A stretch of 24,819 bases of DNA from a virus (taxonomy: Duplodnaviria > Caudoviricetes): the IMG/VR virus record IMGVR_UViG_3300016474_000121, positions 1 to 24,819 of that record. The stretch is one strand, 5' to 3'. The position numbers and the translations under genes were made by a program. The notes below the pieces were generated by a model that saw only the letters and a program-made list of their open reading frames with translations, was not told the origin of the DNA and did not search any database. The number at the start of each line of letters is the position of its first letter. Position 1 is the stretch's first letter. This document shows positions 1 to 23,534 of the stretch, piece by piece.

Positions 1-1247
1 TCTACATCTCGGAATTCTCCAGGGGCAATCGGCGTATCATCACCTTTAATCCGAAGGCCACGCGATTTAAGTCCGCCAGGGAGGTTAGATAGAGTTCCCG
101 CGTCCACCAGTTGACGGATAAGCATGGTTGCGGACTTGGCATATCCACCGATGAGGTGGATGAGTCCGTAGCCGTAGAAGCCGAATCCTGGGATGTACTG
201 GTAGTGGACGAAGTGTTGTCGCTTGAGGTGGAGTTTGTCGCCTTCATACCAGTTCCTTCTGATGGCTAAAACTTTACCTGTTCCCTTTTCGACTGTCACG
301 ACATAGGGCAGCGCGATACCGGTGTTTTCACCTTTCTTGTTTTTGTCCTCAAAGCCTTTGAGGTCCAGGTCCACGTTCATCTCAAGGATGCGATAGCGCT
401 CATCCTGGATGGCGGACATGCCTTGCTCTTCGGCCTTTTGCTTCTCGATGTCGTCGAGCTCACCGGTGGGGTCACCGAGATCGACGTCGAGGTAGAAGCC
501 AGCCTCTTGGAGCTTGTACAGCTCATTCTGCGTCTTGCGCATGACGTGGGTCACACGCTCTGCGCGCTCGATGCTGGATGCGCCGTAGGGGACGACGATG
601 TCTTCTGCGGGGATGAAGACGGAAACTTGGCGGCCCAGGCTCGGGTCGAAGTAAACCTTCTTGAAGGCGGAGCCGGTGATCGGCAAGCTCCATAGCATCT
701 TCTCATGCTCGGGGCGATACTCCGTCATCACCTCGGTCAACTGATAGTTCATGTCGGCCTGGACGCGGGCGGCGGAATCTTTCTTCGCCGGCGTCTCTTT
801 GCCGATGATCACTGTCTTGACGGGGCCTGCTGCCGGGAAAGTTTCTGTGATGCCTTCTGCCTGGAAGCGAACCACGCTCTCGGTGAGCATGGGGTGGAAG
901 ACGCCACAGGCACCCTGCCAGGGTTCTGTGCGGTCTTCGTACTTCAGGCCGAGGAGTTTCAAACCTTCGATGTAGGTCTGCACCCATTCTTTGCGGTCGC
1001 GCAGGTCCTTCTCGAAGTCTGCGACGAGTTCAGAGCCGAGGGAGTCCAGGTCCTGGTCGCTCATGTACTCGGCAAGGTTGGCGTCAAACTCTTCCGGGCC
1101 TTTTTCTGGTGCCGGCTCCAGGTCAATCTCCATCCCATCCATGGAGATGGAAACGGAGTCGGGGTTCTCGATCTCAATCTCAATCGGGGGTTCGTTTAAA
1201 CCCTCCAGTCCTTGAGGGGCCTGATACAAACCTTTGTCGATTGCCAT
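1..1247 (-). CDS. Phage portal protein, P22-like family (3' end runs off the window)
   Basis: Missing from the ORF track; translated by hand from ATG at 1247: MAIDKGLYQAPQGLEGLNEPP...EWVQTYIEGLKLLGLKYEDRTEPWQGACGVFHPMLTESVVRFQAE...GSAFKKVYFDP...VLAIRRNWYE...FVHYQYIPGFGFYGYGLIHLIGG...LVDAGTLSNLPGG. Open to the window edge and directly downstream of terL. Confidence 0.9.
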   Translation of the reverse strand, partial: MAIDKGLYQAPQGLEGLNEPPIEIEIENPDSVSISMDGMEIDLEPAPEKGPEEFDANLAEYMSDQDLDSLGSELVADFEKDLRDRKEWVQTYIEGLKLLGLKYEDRTEPWQGACGVFHPMLTESVVRFQAEGITETFPAAGPVKTVIIGKETPAKKDSAARVQADMNYQLTEVMTEYRPEHEKMLWSLPITGSAFKKVYFDPSLGRQVSVFIPAEDIVVPYGASSIERAERVTHVMRKTQNELYKLQEAGFYLDVDLGDPTGELDDIEKQKAEEQGMSAIQDERYRILEMNVDLDLKGFEDKNKKGENTGIALPYVVTVEKGTGKVLAIRRNWYEGDKLHLKRQHFVHYQYIPGFGFYGYGLIHLIGGYAKSATMLIRQLVDAGTLSNLPGGLKSRGLRIKGDDTPIAPGEFRDV

Positions 1248-1249
1248 GA

Positions 1250-1414
1250 TTAATCCTTCAAAAATTCTTCGGTGTAGAGACCGTGGCACCCATCCACCAC
1301 CTCTGCGCCAGTGCAGTCAATGATGATCTTTGAATGGGGGTTCTTATTTGCGTTGAGCCACTCGATCAATGGCTTCGCCAGCTTCTCAAACGTCTCGATT
1401 TCCTGCTGTGACAT
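1250..1414 (-). CDS. Small conserved-looking phage protein (54 aa)
   Basis: Hand translation MSQQEIETFEKLAKPLIEWLNANKNPHSKIIIDCTGAEVVDGCHGLYTEEFLKD; it fills the terL-portal gap exactly. Confidence 0.7.
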   Translation of the reverse strand: MSQQEIETFEKLAKPLIEWLNANKNPHSKIIIDCTGAEVVDGCHGLYTEEFLKD

Positions 1415-1423
1415 GATGTGCCC

Positions 1424-2932
1424 TCACACGGTGTAGAAGCGGTCGCGGCGACCACGGAAGTAAATCGGTTCATCTGGCTCATCCGAGTCGATCGGGATGA
1501 AACCGCCCTGGCGGAACCTCAGGAGAGCCTGCGATGTCGAGTCCACCAAGTCATCGTGGTCGCCGTTGGGGAATGCGGCCAAGTCTTCCATCAGCTCATC
1601 TGCCCAACGGGTCTCTGGACACCACACCACTCCTGAAGCAAACAGGTCAGAAATCGCGTTTACACGGGCGATCTTATCCTGTCCTTTGCCTGGTGTGTAC
1701 TCCGAAAGAGGGATACCGGTTTGGCGCAATTCGTAGATCAAAGGCGCGCCGGCGGCCTTCTTTTCCACGATCAGCGTGTCGGGGTTCCAGTACTTGTACA
1801 TTTCAACCGCCTTTGATTTGAGCTCGGGGAACTCAAGACGTTCTTTATATGCGTCCAGGAGGATGATGTTGCTCTTGTAATTGCCCTTGTCATCGGGATG
1901 TTTAAACACACCCCATGTAGTACACGCAGAGTAGTCTGCGCGGTTGTGTTTTTCAAAGGCGGTATCCCAGGATTGGATGATGTACTCGCACGGGGGCGGG
2001 GTTTCTTCGGGCCAAATGCGCCATTGCTCGCGTTTGACGATGGCCCCTTCCTCGGAGGTGGGGTTTTGCTGGTACTGGGCGTTCCACTTAGAGACGGGAA
2101 TCTCGGCCTTGATGGCTTCGAGCTCCTCTTTCTTCCAAAAACCGGGCCAAAGAGGGGTTCCCGAGGGCAAAATAGCAGGAAATTCTATTACTTCCCACTC
2201 ATCTGTACCATCTTTTTCGCTATTTTTGAGGATTTGGCCGGTCAGATCGCGTTTTGACCAGCGTGTCATCACGATGATGATGGCTCCGCCTGGTTGGAGA
2301 CGCTGGCGGGGGCCGGATGTGTACCATTCATAGACCCCATCGTAGACGGCGGGGTTGTTTTGCTTGGCTTCCTGCTCTGAATGGGGGTCGTCGATGATGA
2401 GAAGGTCGGCACCTTTACCGGTAACAGCGCCGCCGACGCCGATAGCGAAGTAATCGCCGCCTTTTGAGGTATTCCAACGGCCGGCCGCCTTCGAATCGGA
2501 GGACAGCTCGGTCTGAAAGACCTTCTGATAGGGGGCGGAGGAGACCAAATTCCTCACCTTACGGCCGAAACCGACGGCCAGTTCGGCGGTGTGGGCGGTC
2601 TGGATGATCTTTTTCTCCGGGAACATGCCCAAAAACCAAGCCGGCAAGAGGTAGGAGGCAAACTCCGACTTGGTGTGGCGAGGCGGCATGTTGATGATCA
2701 AGCGCTTGAGCTCGCCCTTTGCCACCCGCTCAAAGGCATCAGCCATGATCTGATGATGCTTGCCCGAAATAAACGAGGGCCACATCTGCGAGGCAAAGAA
2801 GATGAACGACTCCCGGCACCTCTCCTCACGATCAAGCTCCAGCAGGCGCTGGATTTTTCTGCGCTGATCGAGTCCCACAATAGGGATCATCTCCTCATAC
2901 GCATCTATCTCCTGCTTGGTCAGCAAGGTCAT
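1424..2932 (-). CDS. terL: Terminase large subunit (Terminase_6-like ATPase plus RNase H-like nuclease)
   Basis: MPPRHTKSE Walker A region, LLIIDDPH Walker B, IIVMTRW coupling motif, YQQNP, nuclease acidic motifs SWDTA, DYSAC and HDDLVDS. Confidence 0.97.
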   Translation of the reverse strand: MTLLTKQEIDAYEEMIPIVGLDQRRKIQRLLELDREERCRESFIFFASQMWPSFISGKHHQIMADAFERVAKGELKRLIINMPPRHTKSEFASYLLPAWFLGMFPEKKIIQTAHTAELAVGFGRKVRNLVSSAPYQKVFQTELSSDSKAAGRWNTSKGGDYFAIGVGGAVTGKGADLLIIDDPHSEQEAKQNNPAVYDGVYEWYTSGPRQRLQPGGAIIIVMTRWSKRDLTGQILKNSEKDGTDEWEVIEFPAILPSGTPLWPGFWKKEELEAIKAEIPVSKWNAQYQQNPTSEEGAIVKREQWRIWPEETPPPCEYIIQSWDTAFEKHNRADYSACTTWGVFKHPDDKGNYKSNIILLDAYKERLEFPELKSKAVEMYKYWNPDTLIVEKKAAGAPLIYELRQTGIPLSEYTPGKGQDKIARVNAISDLFASGVVWCPETRWADELMEDLAAFPNGDHDDLVDSTSQALLRFRQGGFIPIDSDEPDEPIYFRGRRDRFYTV

Positions 2933-3162
2933 AGAGCAGCCATCTCCTTGGCACTGCGGTCGGTCAGCTTGATCGAGTTGAACTTGTACGGCCGGATCGT
3001 CAAATGACCCTCATCCTGCAACTTATGCACAATCCGATGAATGTTAGCTTTCGACTTCATGTTCATCGCCAAAGCGATCGTCTGATAAGAAGGCGAAATC
3101 CCATGCATCTTGATGTACGCACGGATGAAATCAAGCACGAGCTGGTGTTTTCCACTCATCAT
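2929..3162 (-). CDS. Stand-alone LexA-type winged-HTH DNA-binding protein (no peptidase domain)
   Basis: KHQLVLDFIRAYIKMHGISPSYQTIALAMNMKSKANIHRIVHKLQDEGHL matches the LexA N-terminal domain pattern. GGAG precedes ATGATG at 3162/3159; the stop overlaps the terL start. Confidence 0.8.
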   Translation of the reverse strand: MMSGKHQLVLDFIRAYIKMHGISPSYQTIALAMNMKSKANIHRIVHKLQDEGHLTIRPYKFNSIKLTDRSAKEMAAL

Positions 3163-3322
3163 CCATCTCCGCCTGCGTAATGCAGTGATAAGCAATACGG
3201 CACTCAGTAATACACCTCAAAGCAGCTTCCTGCGCCGCTTCGTACTTCCGAGCCAACATGGCCTCATGCAACTCCTTCAGAGCCTTCTCAGCCATCATCG
3301 TGGGGTATGCGTAATCAATCAT
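3131..3322 (-). CDS. Hypothetical protein (63 aa)
   Basis: MIDYAYPTMMAEKALKELHEAML...; GAGG upstream; first gene after the promoter at 3343-3371. Confidence 0.7.
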   Translation of the reverse strand: MIDYAYPTMMAEKALKELHEAMLARKYEAAQEAALRCITECRIAYHCITQAEMDDEWKTPARA

Positions 3323-3342
3323 GGTTTAAACCTCATGGCCAG

Positions 3343-3371
3343 AGTTTAAACAAGATAGCGAACGTTTGCAA
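3343..3371 (-). promoter_or_regulatory. sigma70-type promoter for the LexA-like/terL/portal transcript
   Basis: Minus strand TTGCAA-17 bp (acgttcgctatcttgtt)-TAAACT. The -10 overlaps a GTTTAAAC site. Confidence 0.55.
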
Positions 3372-3455
3372 GTCTTTACTATTGCACTCCACACGACTTG
3401 CACCGCGTCGGCGTGGCCTCCGCGTTTGCAAGCTCTTGCTATTGCACTCCACACG
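3363..3455. repeat. 33-bp direct repeat, 2 copies, period 60
   Basis: 3363-3395 cgtttgcaagtctttactattgcactccacacg vs 3423-3455 cgtttgcaagctcttgctattgcactccacacg (4 mismatches). Confidence 0.9.
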
Positions 3456-3509
3456 GCCACCTTTTTTCCAAAATATATACCCCCCGGGAGGGTCGATTTT
3501 GAAAAGCAA

Positions 3510-3646
3510 GGGGGTGGGTCTGCATGGGGCGGGAGGATGAGAACGTTCGTGGATTGAAAAGGGAGGGGTATTGTGTGAGTGGATTACAGCGTAGGGCATG
3601 GAGGGGGAGGTAAGTGGCCCTAGTCGGGGGTGGGGGTACGGTGGGG
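3510..3646 (+). other. G-run-rich non-coding tract with a canonical G-quadruplex motif
   Basis: GGGGG-T-GGG-TCTGCAT-GGGG-C-GGG at 3510-3533; further G runs at 3603-3607, 3626-3630, 3632-3636 and 3643-3646. Confidence 0.6.
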
Positions 3647-3725
3647 CACGCATACCGCTCCCCTCGAAGGCTCTACCCCCATCGCCGTTTAAACTGCATC
3701 ACGCACACTAGGCATTGCATCACGC

Positions 3726-4427
3726 TCACTGCTCACGCACTGCTGGCACTGGCTCACTGATGACCGTAGAGGAAGGCACATCGATGATCTGCGCCTTGGT
3801 GATGCGCTTTGTGTTGCCCACCAGCTTCAGGTGGCGTGCGAGTTCCTGCTTCAACTGCTCGGCCGTAAGTGATTCCTCCTCCTCTTGCGGTGCCTGTTTG
3901 AACATTCCTACGCTCTTTCCCATCAGTTCTAGTGCCTTGAGTTTGCTGCCCTCTTGTTTGGCTTCTTTGCTCAGATCAAGCAAGCTCTTGATGACATACC
4001 GTTTCACTGCCACTGCATCTTCCGTGAGCGCTTCCACGGTCTGTCCCCAGTGCTCTTGGAGCATCCTCTGGATGCGTATGTCTTGGCTCAGCTTCCATGC
4101 GTTTGCTTTGATCGTCCTCTCGTTTGCCTTGGCGTTTGGGTATGCTTCTCTGTAGGCTTCTACCTGTGTTTTTCCCTCTATGAGGCCCTTTGCGAATTCC
4201 ATCATGCTTGATGTCATTGGCTTCTGTTTCGGGGTTCCTTGTATCTCTCCGTCTTTTCTTCTCTTTGGGGGGACTGCGTCTCTTACCAGCCGTTCCGCTT
4301 CGCTGAGTTCGGGCGCTTCATCACCCCCGTTTAAACCCACTCCGTCCGTCATCTCCTCAAGCCGCCGCAGTAGCTCATCTTTGTTCGCTCTGCCCTTACC
4401 CTGCAACTGATCGTCAAACACACCCAT
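3726..4427 (-). CDS. terS: Terminase small subunit (Terminase_2-like)
   Basis: FAKGLIEGKTQVEAYREAY...IKANAWKLSQDIRIQRML HTH-like region and SKLKALELMGKSVGMF C-terminal motif; upstream of terL; GGGGA RBS. Confidence 0.85.
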   Translation of the reverse strand: MGVFDDQLQGKGRANKDELLRRLEEMTDGVGLNGGDEAPELSEAERLVRDAVPPKRRKDGEIQGTPKQKPMTSSMMEFAKGLIEGKTQVEAYREAYPNAKANERTIKANAWKLSQDIRIQRMLQEHWGQTVEALTEDAVAVKRYVIKSLLDLSKEAKQEGSKLKALELMGKSVGMFKQAPQEEEESLTAEQLKQELARHLKLVGNTKRITKAQIIDVPSSTVISEPVPAVREQ

Positions 4428-4499
4428 CTCATTTCCCCTTCACTGTTTAAACCTGCTTCACCGTTCGCACCCCGTCAATGTATCTGAATACCATCTGAC

Positions 4500-4725
4500 T
4501 TGTCCACACCCTGTGCAAAACTCACCCTTTATCCACACCCTGTGCATAAGTTCTGTAAGTTTGCCGTCAGAAAAGCCCATCTGGCACCTACCCCTCACCC
4601 TCCTCCCGTTCGCCGCTTTAAACGCAGTGTGCAATCACAAAGTATTCATTTATTTATCCACACTGTCCACACCATCCTGTGGATAACGTACGCTCTCCAC
4701 AGGAAACTGTGCGTTCTGTGGATAA
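4500..4725. promoter_or_regulatory. Cluster of DnaA boxes (oriC-like or DnaA-titrating locus)
   Basis: TTATCCACA at 4529 and 4654; TGTGGATAA at 4678 and 4717; TGTGCATAA at 4541; degenerate boxes at 4500, 4512, 4663 and 4693. Confidence 0.8.
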
Positions 4726-4907
4726 GTTTCTTAGAACTTTCTCATTGCAGACATGCCTGCCAGCCGTGATCTTTTCCTGGCCATACCTACCCAGCCTGAA
4801 CCCCCTTTAGCGTCTCCCAGGCCCCTCACCTTGGCCTGTTCATCCCTCTAATAAGAGGCCGAACCAGACCGTCCAGGCACCCAATAACCCCACGCATTGG
4901 TCAACAT

Positions 4908-4936
4908 TTGACAGGCTGATTTAAACCCTATACAGT
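4908..4936 (+). promoter_or_regulatory. Strong sigma70-type early promoter
   Basis: TTGACA-17 bp (ggctgatttaaacccta)-TACAGT at the head of the + strand operon. Confidence 0.8.
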
Positions 4937-4942
4937 CCAACC

Positions 4943-5225
4943 CATGCCATATCACTTTCAGTCGTTTGACTGATAGCGATAGCGAGGCAAAGGCGATCGA
5001 GTCTGGTGCTACCCCCGTAAGTGGTAGACCCTGCTGGTGGAGTCCAGTCGTGAACGGCACACGTTACTGTCGGTCTGAGGCGGTCCCGGTGGCAACACCC
5101 TTCCAGCAATGGATGCAAGTCAGGCAAGGGAAACGCCTTGCACCCCGTCACGGGTAGAAGTGAACCCGAAAACATCGGGTCAAGCATCCATCCAAGGGTG
5201 CTTGCCCAGGTGCTTTTGCCTGATC
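4943..5225 (+). ncRNA. Candidate structured leader or ncRNA (unassigned)
   Basis: Serial hairpins between the promoter and the first RBS, e.g. GGTG-GCAA-CACC (5088-5099), TCCA-GCAA-TGGA (5102-5113), ACCCGA/TCGGGT (5164-5180), CAAGCATCC/GGGTGCTTG (5181-5204). Confidence 0.5.
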
Positions 5226-5239
5226 CTCTGGAGCAATCC

Positions 5240-5548
5240 ATGCCTTACATCACAGTCCTGAACCCCGAGCAAGTCCTGACCAACATCAAGAAGCGCCTGC
5301 AACAGGCGAACCGTGAATTCTCCAAGTACCCCAACGCCACCAACTGGAACGTGCAGCAACGCCTTGCCTTCACCTACCAGCAGGCCTTCTACTTCCTGAA
5401 TTCATCGAGCCGCAGTCTTGATCAGAAGTTTGCATTCCTGACCGCCCTGTCCCGCGAGCCCAACGGCAACTGGGGCGATGTGGTCTGCCAGCACTGCCTG
5501 GGAATGACCCTGCAAAAAGCCCTCAACGAGTACGCCGTCAACCCCTGA
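5240..5548 (+). CDS. Hypothetical early protein (102 aa)
   Basis: GGAG RBS then ATG at 5240 (MPYITVLNPEQ...); GC3-rich codon usage. Confidence 0.8.
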   Translation: MPYITVLNPEQVLTNIKKRLQQANREFSKYPNATNWNVQQRLAFTYQQAFYFLNSSSRSLDQKFAFLTALSREPNGNWGDVVCQHCLGMTLQKALNEYAVNP

Positions 5549-5559
5549 AAGGAACCGCC

Positions 5560-5820
5560 ATGAAAATCACCGTCTACACCGATCCCGGCCACGGTTGGGC
5601 TGCCGTCAAGCGCGACCTGCTGGTCAAGTTCGGCATCGCCGACAAGGTGTCCACCTACTCCTACCAGCGTGGCAAGACTGTCTACCTTGAGGAAGACTGC
5701 GACCTGTCCCTGCTGATCGGGGCCCTCAAGGCCCGCAACATCACCCCTCAGTGGGACGAGCGCCACACCGACCGCCGCAGCCCGATTCGGTCCTATGACC
5801 ACTACCGGGTGGCCCAGTGA
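5560..5820 (+). CDS. Conserved phage protein with DPGHGW...YLEEDCD motifs
   Basis: AAGGA RBS; the motif pair is recognisable from phage hypothetical proteins. Confidence 0.8.
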   Translation: MKITVYTDPGHGWAAVKRDLLVKFGIADKVSTYSYQRGKTVYLEEDCDLSLLIGALKARNITPQWDERHTDRRSPIRSYDHYRVAQ

Positions 5821-5902
5821 CTTGGCCCTTCCCGCCACCTACCGGCCCAGTGCCGTGGACGCCCGCCCAGCAGCGGGCATACCGCAAACAACAACAACCC
5901 CA

Positions 5903-5922
5903 GGGGCCTGACGCCCCCTTTA
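5903..5922 (+). terminator. Short hairpin, possible weak terminator or processing site
   Basis: GGGGC-CTGAC-GCCCC followed by CTTTA. Confidence 0.3.
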
Positions 5923-5934
5923 TCGGAGAGAGCC

Positions 5935-6573
5935 ATGCAGACCATCGCAACCATCGCCGCATCTGACCGCGCGTCCTACGCGGCAGCCGCTGAGCCCAGC
6001 CCCCGTGTGCTGGCGTGGGTCAGCCAGAACCAAGCAGCCTACGAATGGATCGTGAACCATGCCGACACAAACACCTTTGCCGGCTCCCTCCACGCATCCC
6101 TTCACAAGTGGGGCAGACTGACCGAGCGCCAACTGACCGCAGTCCTGGGTGCCATTGCCCGCGCCAACATCGCCGCCAACAAGGCTGAGAATGCGCCCGC
6201 ACTGTCGGTCGACCCCATCGAAGCCGCTTTCGACAAGGCTAAGGCAGCAGGCCTTGCCCGCCCCAAGCTGCGCCTTGGTGAGTTTGTCTTCAGCCCTGCG
6301 CCCGCCACCGGCAAGAACCCCGGCGCGATCTACGTCAAGCACAGTGACGGCACCTACCTTGGCAAGGTTGCCGGCGGTCGCCTGTTCACCGGCTATCAGG
6401 TCTCGCCCGAGGTCGAGAGAGACATTGTCTCCGTGGCAGCAGACCCCCACAACGCAGCCATTGCCTACGGCAAGCGCTACGGCAAATGCTCAGTGTGCGG
6501 TCGCGCACTGACTGACGCCGATTCAATTAATCGCGGCATCGGACCCGTCTGTGCCGCCAACTACGGGTGGTGA
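5935..6573 (+). CDS. DUF6011-like zinc-ribbon domain protein
   Basis: C-terminal YGKRYGKCSVCGRALTDADSINRGIGPVCA; GGAGAGAG RBS. Confidence 0.8.
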   Translation: MQTIATIAASDRASYAAAAEPSPRVLAWVSQNQAAYEWIVNHADTNTFAGSLHASLHKWGRLTERQLTAVLGAIARANIAANKAENAPALSVDPIEAAFDKAKAAGLARPKLRLGEFVFSPAPATGKNPGAIYVKHSDGTYLGKVAGGRLFTGYQVSPEVERDIVSVAADPHNAAIAYGKRYGKCSVCGRALTDADSINRGIGPVCAANYGW

Positions 6574-6575
6574 TC

Positions 6576-6977
6576 ATGGGAAATCGCGCAGTAATCACAT
6601 TCTCAGCCGCATCGTCGGCACCCTGCATCTACCTGCACTGGGACGGCGGCCGTTGCAGTGTCCAAGCCATGCTCGACGCAGCGCGCCACCTGAACATGGA
6701 CGCCCCGCTGCAAGGCATGGGAGACCCCATGCGCTTCGACGCCCAGGCTAAGGTGCTCGACGCCATCGCCGACATGGTCAAGCGCTGGGGAGGATCAGCC
6801 TACCGCGAGACCTACGGCAGCGCCGACACAGACAACCAAGACAACGGGGTCTACTACATCGACGAAGAACTGCAAATCGTCAAGCGCCTGTTTAAACGGC
6901 ATGACGAAGAGATCGACGAAGCGAAGCAGCAGCGCGTTTACCAGGGCCTGATCGAGGCCATGACGAGCGACGACTGA
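6576..6977 (+). CDS. Conserved phage hypothetical protein (MGNRA...IYLHWDGG...DNGVY)
   Basis: Start immediately after the previous stop; motif pattern typical of phage early proteins. Confidence 0.8.
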   Translation: MGNRAVITFSAASSAPCIYLHWDGGRCSVQAMLDAARHLNMDAPLQGMGDPMRFDAQAKVLDAIADMVKRWGGSAYRETYGSADTDNQDNGVYYIDEELQIVKRLFKRHDEEIDEAKQQRVYQGLIEAMTSDD

Positions 6978-7085
6978 TGACCGTAGAAGAGACCCTCCAC
7001 CAATAACCCCACGCCCTGATCGGGTAAATATCATCAACCATTTGCCCGTGATATTATCTGGGCTCCCTGTTTAAAGGTGCATGAC

Positions 7086-7670: not shown

Positions 7671-7699
7671 TTCCAACCACAACCACGAAGAGAGAAACC

Positions 7700-15243: not shown

Positions 15244-15246
15244 GTG

Positions 15247-15483: not shown

Positions 15484-15791
15484 TTTTGCTCCTTTACGTT
15501 TCGCAATATGGCCTCAGCATTTCTTTTTGCCTCACCACCGACACCATATCCATAGTCACTAGCAAATTCATCTTGAATCACATATAACTCCAGCGCAGTC
15601 AATAGCATCTGATTGACTTCATACAATCGACGTAATTCGTTGGCTGTGCTCCGCTGATCTTCTTGCTCTCGCTTCAGCGCATCGGGTCGATAACCAAACT
15701 CCACATAATCGTTTTCATCAACCCATGTCTGCAAATCTTTAGCGCGATTTTCCCAGTATTCAGCCAGTAGAAGTGTTTTCGGTTTCTGCAT
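15480..15791 (-). CDS. Hypothetical protein (103 aa)
   Basis: AAGGAG RBS; ATGA overlap with the next gene. Confidence 0.75.
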   Translation of the reverse strand: MQKPKTLLLAEYWENRAKDLQTWVDENDYVEFGYRPDALKREQEDQRSTANELRRLYEVNQMLLTALELYVIQDEFASDYGYGVGGEAKRNAEAILRNVKEQK

Positions 15792-15797
15792 AATTTC

Positions 15798-16250: not shown

Positions 16251-16276
16251 GCTTGTCCCCTTGCTCGGATGGCGGC
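16207..16276 (-). repeat. 70-bp dispersed inverted repeat (partner at 24347-24416)
   Basis: gccgccatccgagcaaggggacaagcatgacYaaagaYgaagcaYtgaagctggcgctggaggcgttgga; 3 mismatches. Confidence 0.92.
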
Positions 16277-16513
16277 GTCATACAAGCGCAATTCGGCTGC
16301 GGCGTCTTTATGATTACAGCCGTTCTCCAGCCAGTTGATGACGGGCTCCAAATTGGGCCAAGCCTCACGCTCGGCAGCAACTACAAGGGCGGCAAAGCGT
16401 TCAAGCTGAGGAATGTACAAAGGAAGTCCGGTCTCATAGTCATATGGAAGAAATGCCTCCCGCGCCATGCGGATGATGTCATCTCTTTCAATCTTCTTTG
16501 CTTCCGTCTTCAT
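16247..16513 (-). CDS. Mosaic-family protein (RDDIIRMAREA...FAALV.AAEREA...AIRARGQA)
   Basis: Start at MKTEAK overlapping the upstream stop; C-terminus shared with 24116-24376. Confidence 0.8.
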   Translation of the reverse strand: MKTEAKKIERDDIIRMAREAFLPYDYETGLPLYIPQLERFAALVVAAEREAWPNLEPVINWLENGCNHKDAAAELRLYDAAIRARGQA

Positions 16514-16944
16514 GGTGTCTTCCCTTCGATCAAGAAGTCTGCAAACGCCTTTGCCGCATGGACGACATCGTGTGGGGTCATAATGGCACCTCTGCCTATG
16601 TGACACATCATTAATTTATTTGCCTCATCAAGAGCCACTACCCTCATGGGCTGCGTCCTCTCCAGGTAGCTGGTCATACTTTCAATCTTCTGAGCTTGAG
16701 GTGCGAAGGTAAGTCCTGCCGAACTGTTGCCATTAGGGATGGTGCCGATCGTGTAGTTTGCTGAGGATTGCCATTCAATCTTCTGTTGTTCGGCAATCAT
16801 CGCCTTCTTCATCAGTTCAGCCTTCTCCAGTTCAGCCTTCTCCTTCAGCTTGTTTAAACGATCTTGCGTGTGTGCTAGATCGCGCAGTCTGACCTGCTCG
16901 GCAACCTCCTGCGCTGTCATTTCTTTGATGCCGTTATTACTCAT
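16510..16944 (-). CDS. Hypothetical protein (144 aa), C-terminal domain paralogous to 17256-17591
   Basis: GAGG RBS; MRVVAL.EA...A.AFA.FLI.GK shared. Confidence 0.8.
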   Translation of the reverse strand: MSNNGIKEMTAQEVAEQVRLRDLAHTQDRLNKLKEKAELEKAELMKKAMIAEQQKIEWQSSANYTIGTIPNGNSSAGLTFAPQAQKIESMTSYLERTQPMRVVALDEANKLMMCHIGRGAIMTPHDVVHAAKAFADFLIEGKTP

Positions 16945-17245
16945 GGCTCACCTCAATCTCTTTGATGATGTTCAGTTTTTCCAGCACCTCGTCATCTGTG
17001 AGACGGCCGATAACGTCATCAAAACCGTGCTCGTAAACAAGCTCAAAGTTTGAGCCATCGAACTTGACCAGGGCCAACTCCCACAGCCCATGCTCAGCGC
17101 CGAAACTGCACGGCAACATCCCTACGCCAGGGACATTGATGCTGAAGCGAATGACGCTCGCGCCGTAGCCGTTGGGAAAGCGATACAGCTTCTGTATTCC
17201 ATCCCCGACCGGGTGGTCGTCCTCATACAACTTGTACTCTTCCAT
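16937..17245 (-). CDS. Conserved phage protein (YRFPNGYGASVI...GLWELA...DDVIG.LT)
   Basis: GAGGAGAGAGAG-ATG at 17245 (MEEYKL); familiar phage motif. Confidence 0.8.
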   Translation of the reverse strand: MEEYKLYEDDHPVGDGIQKLYRFPNGYGASVIRFSINVPGVGMLPCSFGAEHGLWELALVKFDGSNFELVYEHGFDDVIGRLTDDEVLEKLNIIKEIEVSHE

Positions 17246-17255
17246 CTCTCTCTCC

Positions 17256-17591
17256 TCAGGCTTTGCCATCGATCAGGAACACAGCAAAAGCTCTAGCCAT
17301 TTTTGTAATGTCCTGCGCGGTCATGTGCGCGCCATGTGACATAGAGTCCTTGGCAATCTCGCAGGCCTCGTTTAAAGCGACAACCCGCATGGACTGCGTG
17401 TCTTCCAGGTATTGTTTCTTTGCCAAATCACCCGATGCCACCTGCGCCCAGTAAGTTTTATCCATGCTGTGCAAGGCCTCGTCAAAAGCCTTGACCTTGT
17501 CATCAATGACCGCCTGCTCCAGTGATTTCCCGCTCATCGCCAAGGTCGACGGGGAAATCTTCATGACCCTCTTTCTTTCCTTCTCTTCCAT
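17256..17591 (-). CDS. Hypothetical protein (111 aa), paralog of 16510-16944
   Basis: AGGAGAGAGAG RBS. Confidence 0.8.
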   Translation of the reverse strand: MEEKERKRVMKISPSTLAMSGKSLEQAVIDDKVKAFDEALHSMDKTYWAQVASGDLAKKQYLEDTQSMRVVALNEACEIAKDSMSHGAHMTAQDITKMARAFAVFLIDGKA

Positions 17592-17619
17592 CTCTCTCTC
17601 CTATAAAAGGTTTTTGGTT

Positions 17620-17845
17620 TATTTCACCCAAAGACCCCCCTACCCCCAGGGAGTCGATGGGATGGTTTCACCGCCTTACGGCATCTGCATGCTCATTGCT
17701 GAGCCCCTCGGCTTGCAGATAAGACCAGCCGCACGGGTTGTTCGGGAACTGCCCCCTAGACCGAAGTCATACCGTGTCGCGGTTTTCTTCCGAGCAGCCC
17801 CACTTGCGGCCCCTACTTTCGTGCGGAGTACGGGAACTGGAACGG
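17620..17845 (-). ncRNA. Candidate tetraloop-rich structured RNA (unassigned)
   Basis: Minus strand GAC-UUCG-GUC (17759-17768), GCUCA-GCAA-UGAGC (17691-17704), GCC-GUAA-GGC (17673-17682), AUCUGCA/UGCAGAU stem (17714-17720 with 17683-17689). Confidence 0.5.
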
Positions 17846-17848
17846 GCA

Positions 17849-17945
17849 AAAAAAATCGCTAAGACAGACCCCGTTTAGAACGGCTGGCTCCTTTCGGATA
17901 CCAACAACCCCTTACGGGGCCGGAGTCTGACTTAGCGACTTTTGT
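17849..17945 (-). ncRNA. c4/CI-like antisense RNA (cloverleaf)
   Basis: Outer stem of ~23 bp (AAAAGUCGCUAAGUCAGACUCCG / CGGGGUCUGUCUUAGCGAUUUUU) enclosing GUAA- and GAAA-capped hairpins. Unpaired CGUUCUAA is complementary to UUAGAACG just upstream (17953-17960). Confidence 0.65.
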
Positions 17946-17976
17946 TTGCTGGCGTTCTAATTCCAACAGTGTTGCC

Positions 17977-18005
17977 ACTGTATCAGATGCGAACGTTCAG
18001 TGCAA
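17977..18005 (-). promoter_or_regulatory. sigma70-type promoter for the c4-like RNA and leftward operon
   Basis: TTGCAC-17 bp (tgaacgttcgcatctga)-TACAGT. Confidence 0.65.
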
Positions 18006-18026
18006 GAATTTTTGTAGGGATTTACC

Positions 18027-18491
18027 CTACCATACTGAGGATATTGACCAGTCGATCTTCTTGGAAACGGCTGGAGCTTTTTTCTTTGGCTGAGGCTTGC
18101 GGCCGGGTGACGTCTCGTTCTTGATCATGTTCTCCAAGCGGATCGCCCTCAAGTATTCCTCGTACTTCTTGGTCCGACGGATCAGTCCATCGATCAACCT
18201 CTCTGCCGAATCCTCACGGCCAGGGTTGTAGTGCAGAAACCACTCACGCAGACTGCTCACCAGGACGACCACACGAGGCTTGCCACCCAGGAATCGGAAC
18301 CTGCCGCGCAAGGGCAGGCGCTTCACTTTGACGCTCTGACCACCTACACCACACCCGAGCATGCAAGAGGCCCAGAAATTTTTGGGGAGGAAGTGAAAGG
18401 TCTTGACGAGGACTGCGGTGTCAACGTACTCGCCGTCCTCTGGCTTGTAGTGGAGCAGTTGACGCTCAAGCATTCTGTTGCTTATTGCCAT
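18027..18491 (-). CDS. Basic hypothetical protein (154 aa)
   Basis: GAGG RBS; lies directly downstream of the repeat array. Confidence 0.7.
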   Translation of the reverse strand: MAISNRMLERQLLHYKPEDGEYVDTAVLVKTFHFLPKNFWASCMLGCGVGGQSVKVKRLPLRGRFRFLGGKPRVVVLVSSLREWFLHYNPGREDSAERLIDGLIRRTKKYEEYLRAIRLENMIKNETSPGRKPQPKKKAPAVSKKIDWSISSVW

Positions 18492-18508
18492 GATCGCCTC
18501 TTGTTATA

Positions 18509-18816
18509 TGTTGGTGGCTCCCATAAGGCAGGGTTGGAGCGCAACTGAGCAAGAAAGCCCCACGGGGCCAATCCGTTTCCACCAACACGGCCTGGGACTC
18601 TGGTTACGTTAATCCAGTTCGGTTGTACTTCCCGACGATTCAATCCCAGTGCGTGTTGGTGTTGGACGGGCGTGGTCTTGGATTTCTGGCTGGCATTGTT
18701 GTCCAGCCCACCAGTAGGTCACGCCCACCAACACGGCTGGGGACTGTACGGCTACTGAACCTTTCGGCTCCCTCGTGACCGCACTCCAAGGTGAACAATC
18801 CCCATGCGTCTTGGTG
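18509..18816 (-). repeat. Array of alternating inverted repeats (CACCAACACG / CGTGTTGGTG) with unique inserts; candidate small-RNA array
   Basis: caccaacacg at 18580 and 18726; cgtgttggtg at 18652; cgtcttggtg at 18807; tgttggtgg at 18509. Confidence 0.8.
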
Positions 18817-18818
18817 CT

Positions 18819-18854
18819 TGTTGTTATCCTTCCTTAGCCGGAAGGATAACAACA
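18819..18854. repeat. Perfect 15-bp inverted repeat with 6-nt spacer
   Basis: TGTTGTTATCCTTCC-ttagcc-GGAAGGATAACAACA. Confidence 0.95.
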
Positions 18855-18871
18855 TCCTCAAAGAATGTCAA
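18843..18871 (-). promoter_or_regulatory. sigma70-type promoter driving the repeat array
   Basis: TTGACA-17 bp-TATCCT with TGn extended -10; AT-rich upstream DNA and GTTTAAAC at 18879. Confidence 0.75.
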
Positions 18872-18980
18872 GCTATGCGTTTAAACATACAAAGCGTTTT
18901 GCGTGTTTGTTTTTTATTGGTAACTTATTTTTCGCGCAGCGTTTATACTTGGCGCACGGATTCCTCATCCGTCTGCTGCA

Positions 18981-19433
18981 TCAAGCAGTTGCCTCTCTCT
19001 TCTTGCCCCGCCCTGTGCGGGGCTTTTCTTTGGGGCATACAGAAGGGATGCACTCCACGACGATCTCTGTGCGGGGGTTCTCAGGGTCAAGCCCCCAGTA
19101 GATGTGCTTCTCCTTCACCTGACGGTCGTTCTCATATATGAGGCCCTGCATCAGGTCCAGGATCAACGACTCATCCAGGTCAGGTCTGCGCGACGCATAG
19201 AAGATGCGCATGATCACCCGCAGGTCTCCCTGCATCAGCGTGGCCAGAGGAGTGCATTGACGTTTAAATGCCTCAGAGTACTTCAGCGCCTTGCTCGACT
19301 TGATCAGCCGACTCATCCCGCCAATACGAACCACCTTGCGGCTGTTGGCCTTGGATGCAGGCTCACCAAAAATAATTTGTGATATTGCTTGCAAACCCTG
19401 TTCGCTTGCACTATCATTTGGGCTCAGACTCAT
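18981..19433 (-). CDS. rusA: RusA-like Holliday junction resolvase
   Basis: GEPASKANSRK, RRPDLD...ILDLMQG.IYENDRQV, NPRTEI; GAGG RBS before ATG 19433. Confidence 0.85.
   Translation of the reverse strand: MSLSPNDSASEQGLQAISQIIFGEPASKANSRKVVRIGGMSRLIKSSKALKYSEAFKRQCTPLATLMQGDLRVIMRIFYASRRPDLDESLILDLMQGLIYENDRQVKEKHIYWGLDPENPRTEIVVECIPSVCPKEKPRTGRGKKREATA
19389..19417 (+). promoter_or_regulatory. sigma70-type promoter for the recombination operon, inside the rusA 5' end
   Basis: TTGCAA-17 bp (accctgttcgcttgcac)-TATCAT, 35 bp upstream of ATG 19453. Confidence 0.65.
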
Positions 19434-19452
19434 AAGCACCTCTGGAGAGAGA

Positions 19453-20325
19453 ATGAAAGTTACGAACGTTCACAACGTGCCGCAGCCCCTTGTAACGCTT
19501 GCTGAGGGCCGATATTACAGCAAGGGCAAGTCAGATTACAGCGTCACAGAGCTTATGTCTCCTCCCCGTGTGCAGCGCCTGCGCTCCCAGAGGGACGAGG
19601 ACATGGAGCAGGATGTATCTCAAATGTTGTGGCCCTTGCTGGGCTCCGCTCTCCACGTAGTCATGGAGAGAGGGGAGACAGAGGGGTGGACATCTGAGGA
19701 GCGCCTCTTCCTGGAGATTGACGGGGTGGTCATCTCTGGTGCGATTGACCTTCAGCAAAACACCCCGGACGGGATCGTCATCGTTGACTACAAGTTCACC
19801 TCTGCGTGGGCTGTGATGAATGACAAGATCGAGTGGGAGCAGCAGCTCAATGTGTACAAGTGGCTGGTCGAGCGAGTCAAGAAGACGCCCGTCAAGGCCT
19901 TGCGCATCTGTGCCCTGATCCGCGATTTCAACCGCCATGACACTGGCCGCGCAGGCTACCCGCAGTCTCCCATTCACATGGTGGAGATTCCCATGTGGGA
20001 CCCGGTCAAGGCTGAGACCTATGTACGTGAGCGCCTGGAGATGCACCGCAACTCCAAGCTGGCAGCAGACTTCGGAGAGCCTCTCCCTGAGTGCTCCCCA
20101 GAAGAGCGGTGGATGTCTGAGACGACATACGCCGTCAAGAGAGAGGGACGCAAGACTGCGATCCGTGTGTTTAAAACCATAGAGGAAGCCACCGAGTTGG
20201 CTCAGAAGGAGAAAGGCTATGTCGAAACACGGCTTGGGGAGCCCAAGAGATGCACCGGCAACTACTGCGGTGTTGCTGAGTGGTGCGATCAGTACCAGGC
20301 AGAACTAAATGACACCGTCGTTTGA
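19453..20325 (+). CDS. Cas4-like / PD-(D/E)XK exonuclease
   Basis: SVTEL, GSALH, ISGAID, IVDYK, QLNVY and C-terminal RC...YC...WC; GGAGAGAGA RBS before ATG 19453. Confidence 0.88.
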   Translation: MKVTNVHNVPQPLVTLAEGRYYSKGKSDYSVTELMSPPRVQRLRSQRDEDMEQDVSQMLWPLLGSALHVVMERGETEGWTSEERLFLEIDGVVISGAIDLQQNTPDGIVIVDYKFTSAWAVMNDKIEWEQQLNVYKWLVERVKKTPVKALRICALIRDFNRHDTGRAGYPQSPIHMVEIPMWDPVKAETYVRERLEMHRNSKLAADFGEPLPECSPEERWMSETTYAVKREGRKTAIRVFKTIEEATELAQKEKGYVETRLGEPKRCTGNYCGVAEWCDQYQAELNDTVV

Positions 20326-20614
20326 ACAACGAAAGAAGGACTGGTGGGAGTGGCACAAGGCCAACCCCATGGTCTGGGAATACTTCGAGCGCTTCTCTCT
20401 TGAGGCTGTCTCGAAGGGGCGAAAGAAGATCAGCCACTGGCTCATCATCAATCGCATACGGTGGGAGGTGAACATCGTGACCACCGGAGAGGACTTCAAG
20501 ATCAGCAATGACTACATTGCCTTCTACGCCCGACTCTGGAAAGCGAAGCACCCCCAACACAAGGACCTATTTACAACCAAGCGGATGATCGGAGAACCCT
20601 ATGACGCCGAATGA
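20309..20614 (+). CDS. Conserved phage hypothetical protein (HKANP...RIRWE...FKISND...YAR)
   Basis: Overlaps both neighbours; familiar motif pattern. Confidence 0.8.
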   Translation: MTPSFEQRKKDWWEWHKANPMVWEYFERFSLEAVSKGRKKISHWLIINRIRWEVNIVTTGEDFKISNDYIAFYARLWKAKHPQHKDLFTTKRMIGEPYDAE

Positions 20615-21290
20615 ATTGCTCAAGATTAACGTCAACGAGCACACTGAAAAGAAGAACGGACTGACCTACCTCTCTTGGGCCTGGGCCTGGGCTGAGGTGC
20701 TGAAGCTCGATGCCATGGCGAATTACGATGTGCAGCAGTTCACCCACCCTGACAACCAGAACCTGCTCGTTCCCTACCAGGACATCGGCGGCTCTTGCAT
20801 CGTCTGGGTTTCTGTGACCATCTTTAACAAGACGGTCAAGGTGCAGTTGCCTGTGCTGGACTATCGCAACAAGTGCATCCCCTCGCCCAACGCCTTTGAG
20901 GTCAACACCTCCATCATGCGCTGCCTGACCAAAGGTATCGCCATGCATGGCCTGGGTCTGTACATCTACGCAGGGGAAGACCTGCCGATGGACGCAGAAC
21001 CTGAGGCAAAGCCCGAACCGGTCAAGATCAAGCCCGTCGAGAAGAAGACTGGCGAGGTCAAGGCTGAGGTGGAAATGGATGCCGGCAACTCTGACGCGAA
21101 CGCCAAGCTGTTTGCCGACAGCATGATCCAGTTCTCCACCCTGGTCAAAGACGTGAAGGATTTAAACAGCTACTGGAAGGCCAACCAAGGCCAACTGGAC
21201 AAGCTGAAGGATTCTCACCCCGACCTGTACGAGAACGTGCGCAACACGTTCGCCAACATCAAGGCCCAGTTTTCACAACCCAAGGAGTAA
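20601..21290 (+). CDS. Sak3/DUF1071-type single-strand annealing protein
   Basis: EKKNGLTYLSWAWAW...NTSIMRCLTKGIAMHGLGLYIYAGEDLP. Confidence 0.9.
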   Translation: MTPNELLKINVNEHTEKKNGLTYLSWAWAWAEVLKLDAMANYDVQQFTHPDNQNLLVPYQDIGGSCIVWVSVTIFNKTVKVQLPVLDYRNKCIPSPNAFEVNTSIMRCLTKGIAMHGLGLYIYAGEDLPMDAEPEAKPEPVKIKPVEKKTGEVKAEVEMDAGNSDANAKLFADSMIQFSTLVKDVKDLNSYWKANQGQLDKLKDSHPDLYENVRNTFANIKAQFSQPKE

Positions 21291-21293
21291 ACC

Positions 21294-21590
21294 ATGACTG
21301 ACAAGCAATACAAACCCTATCCCGATTCCGGCTCCCTGCGAGCGACGCAGACCAAGAAAGGTCCCAAGTCGCCCGACTACTGGGGCAACATCGCCATCAA
21401 CCTGAAGGACCTGACCAACATCCAGACCGTTGACGGGCTGACTGTGGTCAAGCTCAGCGGATGGAAGAAGCAAGACAGCCAAGGCCGCACATACCTGTCC
21501 ATCTCTGTGGATCGCTTTGTGCCCGAGCAGCGTACCCAGTCCCGCCCGCAACCTGCTGCCGAGCAAGACGACAGCGACGTGCCCTTTTAA
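21294..21590 (+). CDS. Phage single-stranded DNA-binding protein
   Basis: PDYWG...LSGW...YLSISV core, acidic tail DDSDVPF; follows exonuclease and annealase. Confidence 0.8.
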   Translation: MTDKQYKPYPDSGSLRATQTKKGPKSPDYWGNIAINLKDLTNIQTVDGLTVVKLSGWKKQDSQGRTYLSISVDRFVPEQRTQSRPQPAAEQDDSDVPF

Positions 21591-21607
21591 TCAACAGGAG
21601 AAGAGAG

Positions 21608-22093
21608 ATGCGCCAATACACAAGCAAATCACGCATGATCGAGTTGACACGCTGGATCAAGAAGAACAAGAACGCCACCTTCCATGACTTCGTAGAAGAG
21701 ACCGGCGGCACAGACAGCCAGTTCTATTACATCCGTGATCGACTTGGATGGTCCAAGAAGAAAGGCTTAAGGAAGCAGGCCGAGAAAAGCCAGAAACCGA
21801 TGACCGTAGTTAAAGAGGAGGTGACCCAACCGCTGACTCCAAAAGACGAAGTCATCACCGAAGGCATCACGCCTGACTTCATTTGGTACGAGATGGACCT
21901 GATGCAACGAAAGCTCAATGACATCATCTCCCGCATGGCCCACGTCACCAAGGTTTCCCAGAACCGTGACCTGGAGCAGAAGAAGATGTTGCAGGGCTTG
22001 ATTAAAGAGAACTCCGAGGTCCGCGTTGAGAACAACAGCCTCAAGCAGCAGATCGCGGAGCTCACGGAGATGATCAATGGCACTACAGTTTGA
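21608..22093 (+). CDS. Hypothetical protein with C-terminal coiled coil
   Basis: AGGAGAAGAGAG RBS before ATG 21608. Confidence 0.75.
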   Translation: MRQYTSKSRMIELTRWIKKNKNATFHDFVEETGGTDSQFYYIRDRLGWSKKKGLRKQAEKSQKPMTVVKEEVTQPLTPKDEVITEGITPDFIWYEMDLMQRKLNDIISRMAHVTKVSQNRDLEQKKMLQGLIKENSEVRVENNSLKQQIAELTEMINGTTV

Positions 22094-22487
22094 GGCCAGA
22101 AAGATCGCTCTGAAGCAGGACAGGACTGGTTACGTGCTAACCCTGTCCCTGCACCCAGACGAAATCCCGGAGGAGCTATTGCGGGACTTCGTTGGGGCGC
22201 GATATGCCTGCGCCTTGGTTCGCATTCAGGATGACGAGAGCCCGACCCAGTACGTCAACCGGGTACAGAAGGCTGGGATGCTTTGCCGCAATCCTGCGTT
22301 CCAGGAGTTTGTCGCAGAGAGACTGGTCGGCCACTCCGTCAACGAAGAGCAAACCGCAAACGCCCTGTGTAAACAGTGCGGAATCACATCACGATCAGAA
22401 CTCAATGGCAACGTTCAAGCACAAGAAATGTTCGATGCCATAGTCCTGGACTTTGAAAACTGGAGCCCAAATGCCGACCCCTTCTAA
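22077..22487 (+). CDS. Conserved phage protein (AGMLC...FQEF...CGITSRSEL)
   Basis: Coupled ORF, GGAG RBS. Confidence 0.8.
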   Translation: MALQFEARKIALKQDRTGYVLTLSLHPDEIPEELLRDFVGARYACALVRIQDDESPTQYVNRVQKAGMLCRNPAFQEFVAERLVGHSVNEEQTANALCKQCGITSRSELNGNVQAQEMFDAIVLDFENWSPNADPF

Positions 22488-22812
22488 CAACTACAAGCCC
22501 TTCTTGACCTACCTGCATCCAAGCGAGTACGCCAAGCTCAAGAAGTTTGCAACCAAGACAAAGACACCGATGACTCAGATCGTGCGTGAGGCTGTGGCTG
22601 CGCGCATCTCTGGCGGCAACGCCTACGTCAGCGGTTTCAATGCTGGTCTGCAAGAGGCTATCGACGCCGTCAATGCCATGAATCACGCGCAGATGCGATT
22701 CCCCTCCGGGAAGTCGTTTGCCGAACTTGTCTCTGACGACCTTATTACTCGACGCATGACGGAGGTGAAAGATGAATCTGGTGGGGCAGAGAAATCAGTG
22801 CCAAGGCTGTAA
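22471..22812 (+). CDS. Ribbon-helix-helix-like DNA-binding protein
   Basis: FLTYLHPSEYAKLKKFATKTKTPMTQIVREAV; GGAG RBS before ATG 22471. Confidence 0.65.
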   Translation: MPTPSNNYKPFLTYLHPSEYAKLKKFATKTKTPMTQIVREAVAARISGGNAYVSGFNAGLQEAIDAVNAMNHAQMRFPSGKSFAELVSDDLITRRMTEVKDESGGAEKSVPRL

Positions 22813-23008
22813 GCAGTACTTCAACAGCAACTCAGCCTTTGAGAAGCACAGGACTGGGAAGTACGGTGTAAACAGGCGATGCCTGACGCCAGAAGAGATG
22901 ACGGCGAAGGGCATGCTGGTAAACCATGCGGGCTTCTGGGTGACCAAGGCCTACGATCCAAACATCAAAAGGAAAGATCATGAAAGAGACGAAGAAGAAG
23001 GAGAGTGA
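22772..23008 (+). CDS. Phage FDxHR-type zinc-binding protein
   Basis: CQGC...[13 protein letters not shown]...RRCLTP; GGAGG RBS. Confidence 0.75.
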
Positions 23009-23159
23009 GCAGGACAAGAAGTCCTACTGCCCTCAGAGCATCCTTGATCCCAACTTCAAGTACGTGCCCGCCGCCGCCACAGACGTTACTCAGACATGGC
23101 TCAGATTCGGCTGGAAGCCGATCGAAAGGAACGGGAAGCGTAATGAAAGCCGTTCTTGA
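22980..23159 (+). CDS. Small conserved phage protein (59 aa)
   Basis: Missing from the ORF track; hand translation MKETKKK...[28 protein letters not shown]...; AAGGA RBS. Confidence 0.7.
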
Positions 23160-23349
23160 GTTCAACTACCCAGACGACGAAGATAAGCTGCGCCATGCGA
23201 TACACGGAACGGAAGCGATCCATGCCCTGGACGACATACGCAGATTGATCAGGGCTTGGGAGAAGCATGATGCCTCCAACCCCGAAGAGCTGATTGATCA
23301 GATCAAAGAAAAAGTTTACGACGCACTGCGTCAATGCGGAGAAGAATGA
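23143..23349 (+). CDS. Hypothetical protein ([12 protein letters not shown]...)
   Basis: True start is likely ATG 23143, inside track ORF 23005-23349. Confidence 0.75.
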
Positions 23350-23534
23350 TGTGGATCAATCTAGTGTTCAAGGGCTATACCCACACCCTACCTCTGGAGG
23401 ACATCAGAGACCATGAGGTAGGCAACACCGGATGCTGGTGTGACCCCGATGTGGATGACGAGTTTAAATTGGTGGTTCACAACTCGGCGGATGGAAGAGA
23501 GAAGTTTGAAAGCGGCGAGCGCAAGCCGTCGTAA
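23346..23534 (+). CDS. Small His/Cys protein (H...CWC.P...VVHNSADGRE)
   Basis: ATGA overlap; GGAG RBS. Confidence 0.75.
   Translation: MMWINLVFKGYTHTLPLEDIRDHEVGNTGCWCDPDVDDEFKLVVHNSADGREKFESGERKPS

Follow-up and report, generated by a model that had tools for sequence, protein, structure and literature searches.

A dispersed 8-bp palindrome in phage genomes and its probable reader, the zinc-ribbon tail of an SprT-like protein

The DNA analyzed here (the window) comprises positions 1 to 24,819 of the IMG/VR record IMGVR_UViG_3300016474_000121, a 24.8-kb Caudoviricetes phage fragment with a G + C content of 55.2%, which an earlier note on the same DNA had put at about 57%. The window encodes a portal, a terminase, an SprT-like protein, MoxR/VWA proteins, a primase-helicase, an exonuclease and Sak, and among annotated phages its terminase is nearest to those of DSL-LC04, HTVC023P/027P and MinM2. 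The palindromic word GTTTAAAC is dispersed through the window, between genes as well as inside them, and our analyses suggest that this array is very probably read by a zinc ribbon at the C terminus of the SprT-like protein that the phage itself encodes. The word array and the candidate reader are located as follows (genomes and loci are cited by our own G and L numbers).

1194..18886, no strand: array of 17 exact GTTTAAAC copies, 11 in genes and 6 non-coding, starting at 1194, 1900, 3324, 3344, 3687, 4329, 4445, 6890, 8476, 9174, 10695, 12319, 13580, 14651, 15016, 16852 and 18879
1658..24332, no strand: variant sites of both classes together, namely outer-base variants (7/8 matches) at 4616, 4919, 7069, 12931, 17370, 19262, 20169, 21160 and 23462, and GTGTAAAC/GTTTACAC variants at 1658, 22367, 22866 and 24325
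7069..7076, no strand: variant site GTTTAAAG, 9 bases 5' of the reader-gene start codon, a putative autoregulatory operator
7086..7670, plus strand: SprT-like gene (194 amino acids), the candidate word reader, with an N-terminal zincin metalloprotease fold and a C-terminal zinc ribbon
7533..7667, plus strand: C-terminal 45 residues, the predicted DNA-binding domain (K-Q-x-T-R arm, CxxC, R, PxC)

The 17 exact copies compare with 0.12 expected under an order-2 Markov model; the earlier note had estimated approximately 0.2, and the excess it described stands. All of its 17 exact coordinates and nine 7/8 matches were recovered, and a recount agreed that each of the 26 TTTAAA hexamers in the window keeps at least one G/C flank. 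An enriched variant that it had overlooked, GTGTAAAC/GTTTACAC, occurs four times (0.3 expected), and ATTTAAAC is likewise enriched. The 11 in-gene copies fall into the two reading frames already noticed, with six read as nnG-TTT-AAA-Cnn (FK) and five as nGT-TTA-AAC (G/R-L-N); five of the 19 TTA codons of the window lie within sites, and 10 of its 19 FK pairs are written TTT-AAA. The excess is independent of protein sequence. When synonymous codons were shuffled with proteins and codon usage preserved (300 runs per genome), the mean number of in-gene sites in the window was 0.61 and the maximum was 3, and no shuffle reached the 11 observed. Both main variant classes also exceeded this null (4 vs 0.42 and 4 vs 0.24). 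The in-gene words of G001, G002 and G005 numbered 20, 21 and 35, against shuffle means of 1.6, 1.5 and 2.4; in total, the observed count was reached by none of the 300 shuffles in four genomes, while G012 equals its own null.

Of 92 related terminase or primase loci from freshwater phages, 84 showed enrichment of the word family (P<0.001), and five near-complete relatives harbor 21-49 exact copies. The in-gene sites were partly conserved and partly turned over, with one to four of five to eight exact sites shared at 43-58% synonymous codon identity. One in-gene site, which bears on the synonymous-site comparison proposed in the earlier note, is the following.

8476..8483, no strand: in-gene site within the MoxR-type ATPase gene; the family word is kept in 10 of the 10 relatives with this gene, at approximately 50% synonymous codon identity

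The suggestion that selection acts on the DNA itself is thus supported by both the codon shuffle and the conservation of sites in relatives. Conversely, the idea that codon, amino-acid or mutational bias generates the word has a negligible probability: nothing was found in its favor, it was refuted by the shuffles, the word-less G012 fits the null, and sites persist at saturated synonymous divergence.

G012 is also informative with regard to the reader. The whole terminase-to-primase arm of this relative was covered, the SprT, MoxR and VWA genes are all missing from it, and it contains one word against 0.73 expected. Three other candidate readers, the LexA-like winged helix-turn-helix (wHTH) protein (2929-3162), the RHH protein (22471-22812) and TerS, were rejected as all of them are kept in G012, which shows no word excess. 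The neighbors of the SprT-like gene were rejected as well, because they do not adjoin it in the cultured phages inspected.

7700..10722, plus strand: MoxR/CobS-like AAA+ and VWA genes, downstream of the SprT-like reader gene and lost together with it in G012

The search for co-occurring genes that the earlier note had proposed led to the zinc ribbon of the SprT-like protein. Among the best 80 of 382 SprT loci in IMG/VR, mostly from one clade, all 80 contained at least three exact words (749 words in 942 kb). SprT-like homologues were present in 164 cultured-phage records, 14 of which were hand-picked for diversity. In all 10 cultured phages whose protein carries the Q-x-T-R tail and the Cys ribbon, the word or GTGTAAAC was the first or second most enriched 8-mer: GTTTAAAC in R5C (17 vs 0.04 expected), Mica (7), HeidiAbel (6 vs 0.69), Mano (4) and Persinger (4), and GTGTAAAC in UtzChips (23), Yang (20), Honk (33), Marky (35) and Henoccus (41). 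In contrast, the word was not enriched in any of the four phages (Dismas, Armstrong, FP1 and Epa5) in which the protease is joined to a different tail. The tests covered 40, 40 and 60 kb of the 42, 44 and 60.3 kb of Mano, Persinger and FP1, respectively. No other dispersed word stood out in these four phages in 8-mer, 10-mer and spaced-dyad scans, with a few high-count 10-mers present in Armstrong and FP1. Honk and Dismas infect the same host species, Microbacterium foliorum, and contain 33 words and none, respectively; more broadly, the word and the tail domain go together in phages that infect Actinobacteria as well as Alpha-, Beta- and Gammaproteobacteria. The association was also recovered starting from the motif: among the 79 usable loci listed by a scan for two close words, the tail was found in 14 of 24 dense loci and in none of 55 sparse ones, and seven further dense loci were window-clade fragments. 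Three SprT-positive records had 0.76-0.91 words per kb and 28 negative records at most 0.34, a comparison that was not blind for the three positives and relied on a profile search that misses stand-alone tails; a recheck of six of the 28 with a tail profile gave no match.

The word tracks the 45-residue zinc ribbon and not the protease. In locus L178, which has 19 words in 6.9 kb and no protease, the tail is encoded by itself, in a 55-residue gene that opens an early operon and is preceded by three sites. Across 23 loci with such a stand-alone tail, several of them near-identical, GTTTAAAC was the top 8-mer in all 23, and a site lay upstream within 400 bases of the tail gene in each. This group, which consists of actinophages unrelated to the window, has the densest word arrays. 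One of its members, G051, is a complete genome encoding WhiB and an amidoligase and carrying 37 sites; another, G053, carries 32, and in both the sites are concentrated in the early arm. The SprT protease domain was not found in G051 or G053, each of which has one unrelated HExxH-containing frame.

The sequence of the tail also covaries with that of the word. In the window clade, the outer base was G in a fraction of 0.77 where the residue after the invariant Q is Thr (17 loci) or Gly (35 loci), 0.68 where it is Ala (nine loci) and 0.41 where it is Pro (four loci, with A at 0.46). Pro in the tail accompanies a shift towards ATTTAAAC and was seen on two branches; the second is represented by G010, which has 8 GG, 23 GA and 7 AA sites and forms a separate branch with moderate support. 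If this relationship is true, the tail would be an unusually small sequence-specific binder, with 45 residues providing an 8-bp specificity that is apparently shifted by a single residue.

The SprT-like protein combines this tail with a zincin fold carrying HExxH and a third zinc ligand, as in the SPRTN/Wss1 proteases. The HExxH motif lies at residues 84-88, and H84, E85, H88 and the third His, H96, are invariant in 111 aligned homologues; in the tail, Q156, T158, R159, R173 and three Cys are likewise invariant. In the predicted structure (pLDDT 92.7), the first 140 residues resemble minimal zincins, Wss1 and SPRTN (Z 6-7.4), with middling scores for Wss1 (Z 7.0, rmsd 3.4, 104 aligned) and SPRTN (Z 6.0, rmsd 3.4, 95 aligned). 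The best Foldseek match was 6mdw (E 0.016), the rows for SPRTN, CapP and IrrE being weak (E 0.2 for CapP and IrrE), and the tail matched the Pfam family Zn_ribbon_8 weakly and below the cut-off (E 0.009). A PDB sequence search with the protein returned projannalysin alone (E 0.26), and atlas searches added no function.

Counting variants, intergenic DNA of the window has 2.3 sites per kb and genes have 0.87, and overall sites were 2.6 to 5 times denser between genes than within them. Six strong promoter matches were found in the window; two overlap sites (P=0.026), and another has one immediately upstream. Of the three copies that the earlier note described as overlapping or flanking promoters, those at 4919 and 18879 were supported by a consensus scan, which added one at 15016, while that at 3344 is a weaker match assigned by eye.

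4908..4936, plus strand: sigma-70-like early promoter with ATTTAAAC (4919) in the spacer, 10/12 consensus matches
18843..18886, minus strand: promoter with site 18879 just upstream of the -35, 10/12 matches in the consensus scan
15016..15050, minus strand: promoter-like element whose -10 overlaps site 15016, from the consensus scan
3324..3371, minus strand: promoter-like element before the terminase operon, by eye, 8/12 consensus matches; site 3344 overlaps the -10 and site 3324 abuts the first start codon

In nine of 10 cultured phages and six of 11 clade genomes, the reader gene has a site no more than approximately 100 bases upstream of it; by visual inspection, such sites often fall within a promoter-like element, in its spacer, over its -10 or at its start. 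Site spacing was more regular than expected at random in Yang (CV, the coefficient of variation, 0.44), Marky, Henoccus, Honk, R5C and G009 and, with variants included, in the window (CV 0.67, P=0.024) and G013; even spacing was not seen in G001-G006, G008 and G010.

Taken together, these observations make it slightly better than an even bet that the SprT-like protein of the phage reads the word array with its tail and functions as a stoperator-like repressor; if that protein is indeed the reader, a repressor-type function is reasonably probable. The zinc ribbon would bind the word, probably as a dimer because the word is palindromic or nearly so, and the bound reader would repress the promoters that its sites overlap, including its own. 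Sites inside genes could serve as roadblocks or silencers by which transcription is damped along the rest of the genome, and the protease might be an optional switch, for example if DNA induced the protein to cleave itself and so released or destroyed the reader. The note's proposal of a genome-wide marking system therefore holds in so far as protein-binding sites are supported, while the evidence favors a phage-encoded reader over a host protein or a methylation target; compaction, entry or protection is not favored.

The cultured actinophages offer a possible setting for such a repressor. Cluster AZ lysogens, such as those of the AZ phage Powerpuff, are homoimmune, with no repressor identified in the available part of the report (PMC8758107), and the SprT-like gene is common to AZ and EH phages according to the portions available of PMC8758107 and PMC7302621. 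In the accessible part of a further study (bioRxiv 2025.05.26.655371), Liebe, which has a frameshift in the SprT-like gene and three other changes, forms clear plaques and Maureen turbid ones. The tail reader is a candidate for the AZ/EH actinophage repressor. A broader hypothesis, which we regard as tentative and rather doubtful in all its parts jointly, is that the 45-residue reader and its 8-bp word, repeated every 0.3-6 kb and often evenly, form a portable module of Actinobacteria and Proteobacteria phages, which would serve as the AZ/EH immunity repressor and as a dormancy silencer in non-integrating freshwater phages. Its reader would work either by itself or joined to a Spartan-type protease, the latter acting as a DNA-sensing switch independent of RecA.

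Several observations weigh against a repressor read in this way. Binding of the word by the tail is predicted from sequence comparisons. The majority of sites are intragenic (for the window, 19 of its 26 exact and variant sites), asymmetric sites occur in both orientations, the strict promoter-consensus test was significant in only two of 14 genomes (the window, P=0.026, and G004, P=0.006), and the consensus scan found no or one promoter in each of five cultured actinophages. For the GTGTAAAC-type sites, the orientation counts were 15/8 in UtzChips, 15/18 in Honk, 22/13 in Marky, 22/19 in Henoccus and 6/14 in Yang, although 67 of the 68 Yang genes point rightward. Searches of G002, G004, G005, R5C and Marky detected neither tyrosine nor serine integrases, so any repression in these phages would not serve integrated lysogeny. 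HeidiAbel encodes a cI-like protein of its own and, in the accessible part of PMC11990801, forms clear plaques. Diversification would be expected of an immunity repressor, but the word hardly varies from host to host. In addition, G034 (L409-L410, 56% G + C) has six GTTTAAAC copies in 34.5 kb (0.3 expected), two of which are the pair for which it was selected, with no tail or protease match, and is either an exception or the owner of a more distant reader; a mild word excess without the tail domain was likewise seen in G038, G043 and G035. Finally, the negative controls come from a small number of lineages, namely G012, two cluster EB-type Microbacterium phages and two Mesyanzhinovviridae, and the cultured phages were chosen by hand from the 164 records.

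The closest known arrangement is that of the cluster A mycobacteriophage operators and stoperators bound by the L5/TipsytheTRex immunity repressor, as set out in the available portion of PMC9283540, to which the following comparison is limited. As in that system, a phage-encoded protein is accompanied by at least 20 short dispersed sites, some of them on promoters, with repression proposed in our case; the window alone has 26 exact and variant sites in 24.8 kb, against the more than 20 per genome of stoperators. However, stoperators are asymmetric 13-bp sites, oriented with transcription and located in promoters or short intergenic gaps, whereas the sites described here are 8-bp palindromes or one-base variants with at most one extra preferred flank, occur in both orientations when asymmetric and, though denser between genes, lie mostly inside them. 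The stoperator reader has an HTH and a Stoperator domain, and ours a Cys zinc ribbon often fused to a zincin protease. Unlike stoperators, the word is also nearly the same across unrelated phages and is present in phages without an integrase. The array would thus work like cluster A stoperators while departing from them in site, orientation, location and reader. For the proposed switch, a precedent exists in IrrE/ImmA/CapP, in which a zinc protease is coupled to a DNA-binding repressor and cuts a separate HTH protein at few operators; here, by analogy, cleavage would act on a zinc-ribbon reader fused to the protease and bound at dozens of sites.

The same reader could have other functions. In one, which we consider unlikely, the sites are loading points that space the protease along phage DNA so that it cuts stuck proteins in the manner of Spartan/Wss1, these being DNA-protein crosslinks or host defence proteins, and the promoter sites are merely autoregulatory. 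The invariance of HExxH and the third His, the presence of Wss1 and SPRTN among the closest folds (all weak), the even spacing in Yang, Henoccus, Marky, Honk, R5C and the variant-inclusive window, and an ArdC-like gene in the same arm of G012 are consistent with such a role; that gene (ArdcN + Peptidase_M78; L116 1895-2656) stands where relatives have SprT-MoxR-VWA. The spacing is not even over most whole freshwater genomes, however, and the densest arrays belong to phages that encode the tail but no detectable protease. HeidiAbel has both the gene and the sites and is yet very restriction-sensitive, according to the accessible part of PMC11990801; this sensitivity, together with the protease-free arrays, counts against an anti-restriction or DNA-cleaning role. 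The resemblance to Spartan-family DNA-dependent metalloproteases is one of fold. Spartan proteases are not known to be sequence-specific binders, whereas the tail studied here goes with one particular 8-mer and can also be encoded in the absence of a protease. It is distinctly improbable that the reader is instead an architectural or protective coat, which would bridge, loop or shield the DNA or recruit replication or packaging partners without regulating transcription. Sites that are mostly in genes, unoriented and often evenly spaced would suit a coat, as would a word that is fixed across hosts and kept in phages without an integrase, but the greater density between genes, the clustering in the early arm of the stand-alone group and the sites at the reader's own promoter count against it, and the Liebe/Maureen plaque difference fits regulation.

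A further alternative dispenses with the phage reader and proposes that a host factor or DNA methylation makes or keeps the word, the phage gene being a bystander. Its model is HIP1 of cyanobacteria, a chromosomal word tied to two methyltransferases (PMC5861425, PMC4390886 and PMC13756078, as far as their accessible parts extend). Like HIP1, the word is an over-abundant 8-bp palindrome that accumulates and turns over in coding sequence, with some regular spacing and an over-representation that is strong and independent of codon use, and the enrichment in G034 without a detected reader could be counted in the same direction. Unlike HIP1, it resides in phage genomes and tracks a phage zinc ribbon. 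The hosts span two phyla, the M. foliorum phages Honk and Dismas differ with their tails, and the preferred outer base follows a residue of a phage protein. Moreover, N6_N4 (PF01555) and D12 (PF02086) methyltransferases, the two methylase families searched, were not found in four complete word-rich genomes (G002, G004, G005 and G051). This explanation is accordingly very unlikely.

If the repressor interpretation is correct, it names the reader of a conspicuous genome-wide phage word, gives a function to the common 'SprT-like protease' annotation and provides a direct candidate for the repressor that published AZ/EH actinophage work could not find. It may be tested in the cultured phages Yang, Powerpuff, Liebe vs Maureen, HeidiAbel on E. 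coli K-12 and R5C. No description of the word in phages was found in the open-access literature, to which coverage was limited. The present analysis adds the separation of tail from protease, the reader encoded on its own, the covariation of residue and base, the site spacing and the connection to the repressor missing from AZ/EH phages.

Several other features of these genomes were observed. A search of RNA data for the window returned scattered contigs only. The LexA-like protein mentioned above (2929-3162, minus strand) is a LexA DNA-binding domain alone as a gene, directly before the terminase large subunit, and a second palindrome, GAACGTTC, at 3541, 17991 and 19464, near promoters or gene starts, could be its site. 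Between the terminase and early operons (4529-4725), the window contains four DnaA-box-like TTATCCAC sites in both orientations; similar clusters were present in 10 relatives and absent from G011 and from the examined 50 kb of MinM2. Since no DNA polymerase match was obtained among the proteins scanned, this cluster suggests a host-DnaA-initiated origin. TGACCGTAG occurs four times in the window, at 3761, 6978, 11707 and 21801, always on the plus strand. In G000, G001, G002, G006 and G008, 15 of 15 copies are antisense to the terminase genes, and none was found in six other relatives; such one-strand placement recalls nick-associated motifs. In L098 (7593-16730), L100 (9322-17472) and L113 (414-9902), genes for polyvalent proteins of 2700-3200 residues (LPD38 + ART-PolyVal) are rich in word sites, and tail-fibre regions are poor in them. 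The distant relative G011 (L131-L133) has no SprT-like gene, is enriched in ATAATTAT (nine copies) and encodes an N6_N4 methyltransferase. In MinM2 (L096), no SprT-like gene was found in the 50 of 65 kb examined, and approximately 15 copies of the palindrome GGTTCAG(G/C)CTGAACC, many at early-arm gene boundaries, lie between 9780 and 45587, which may represent a parallel array with another reader.

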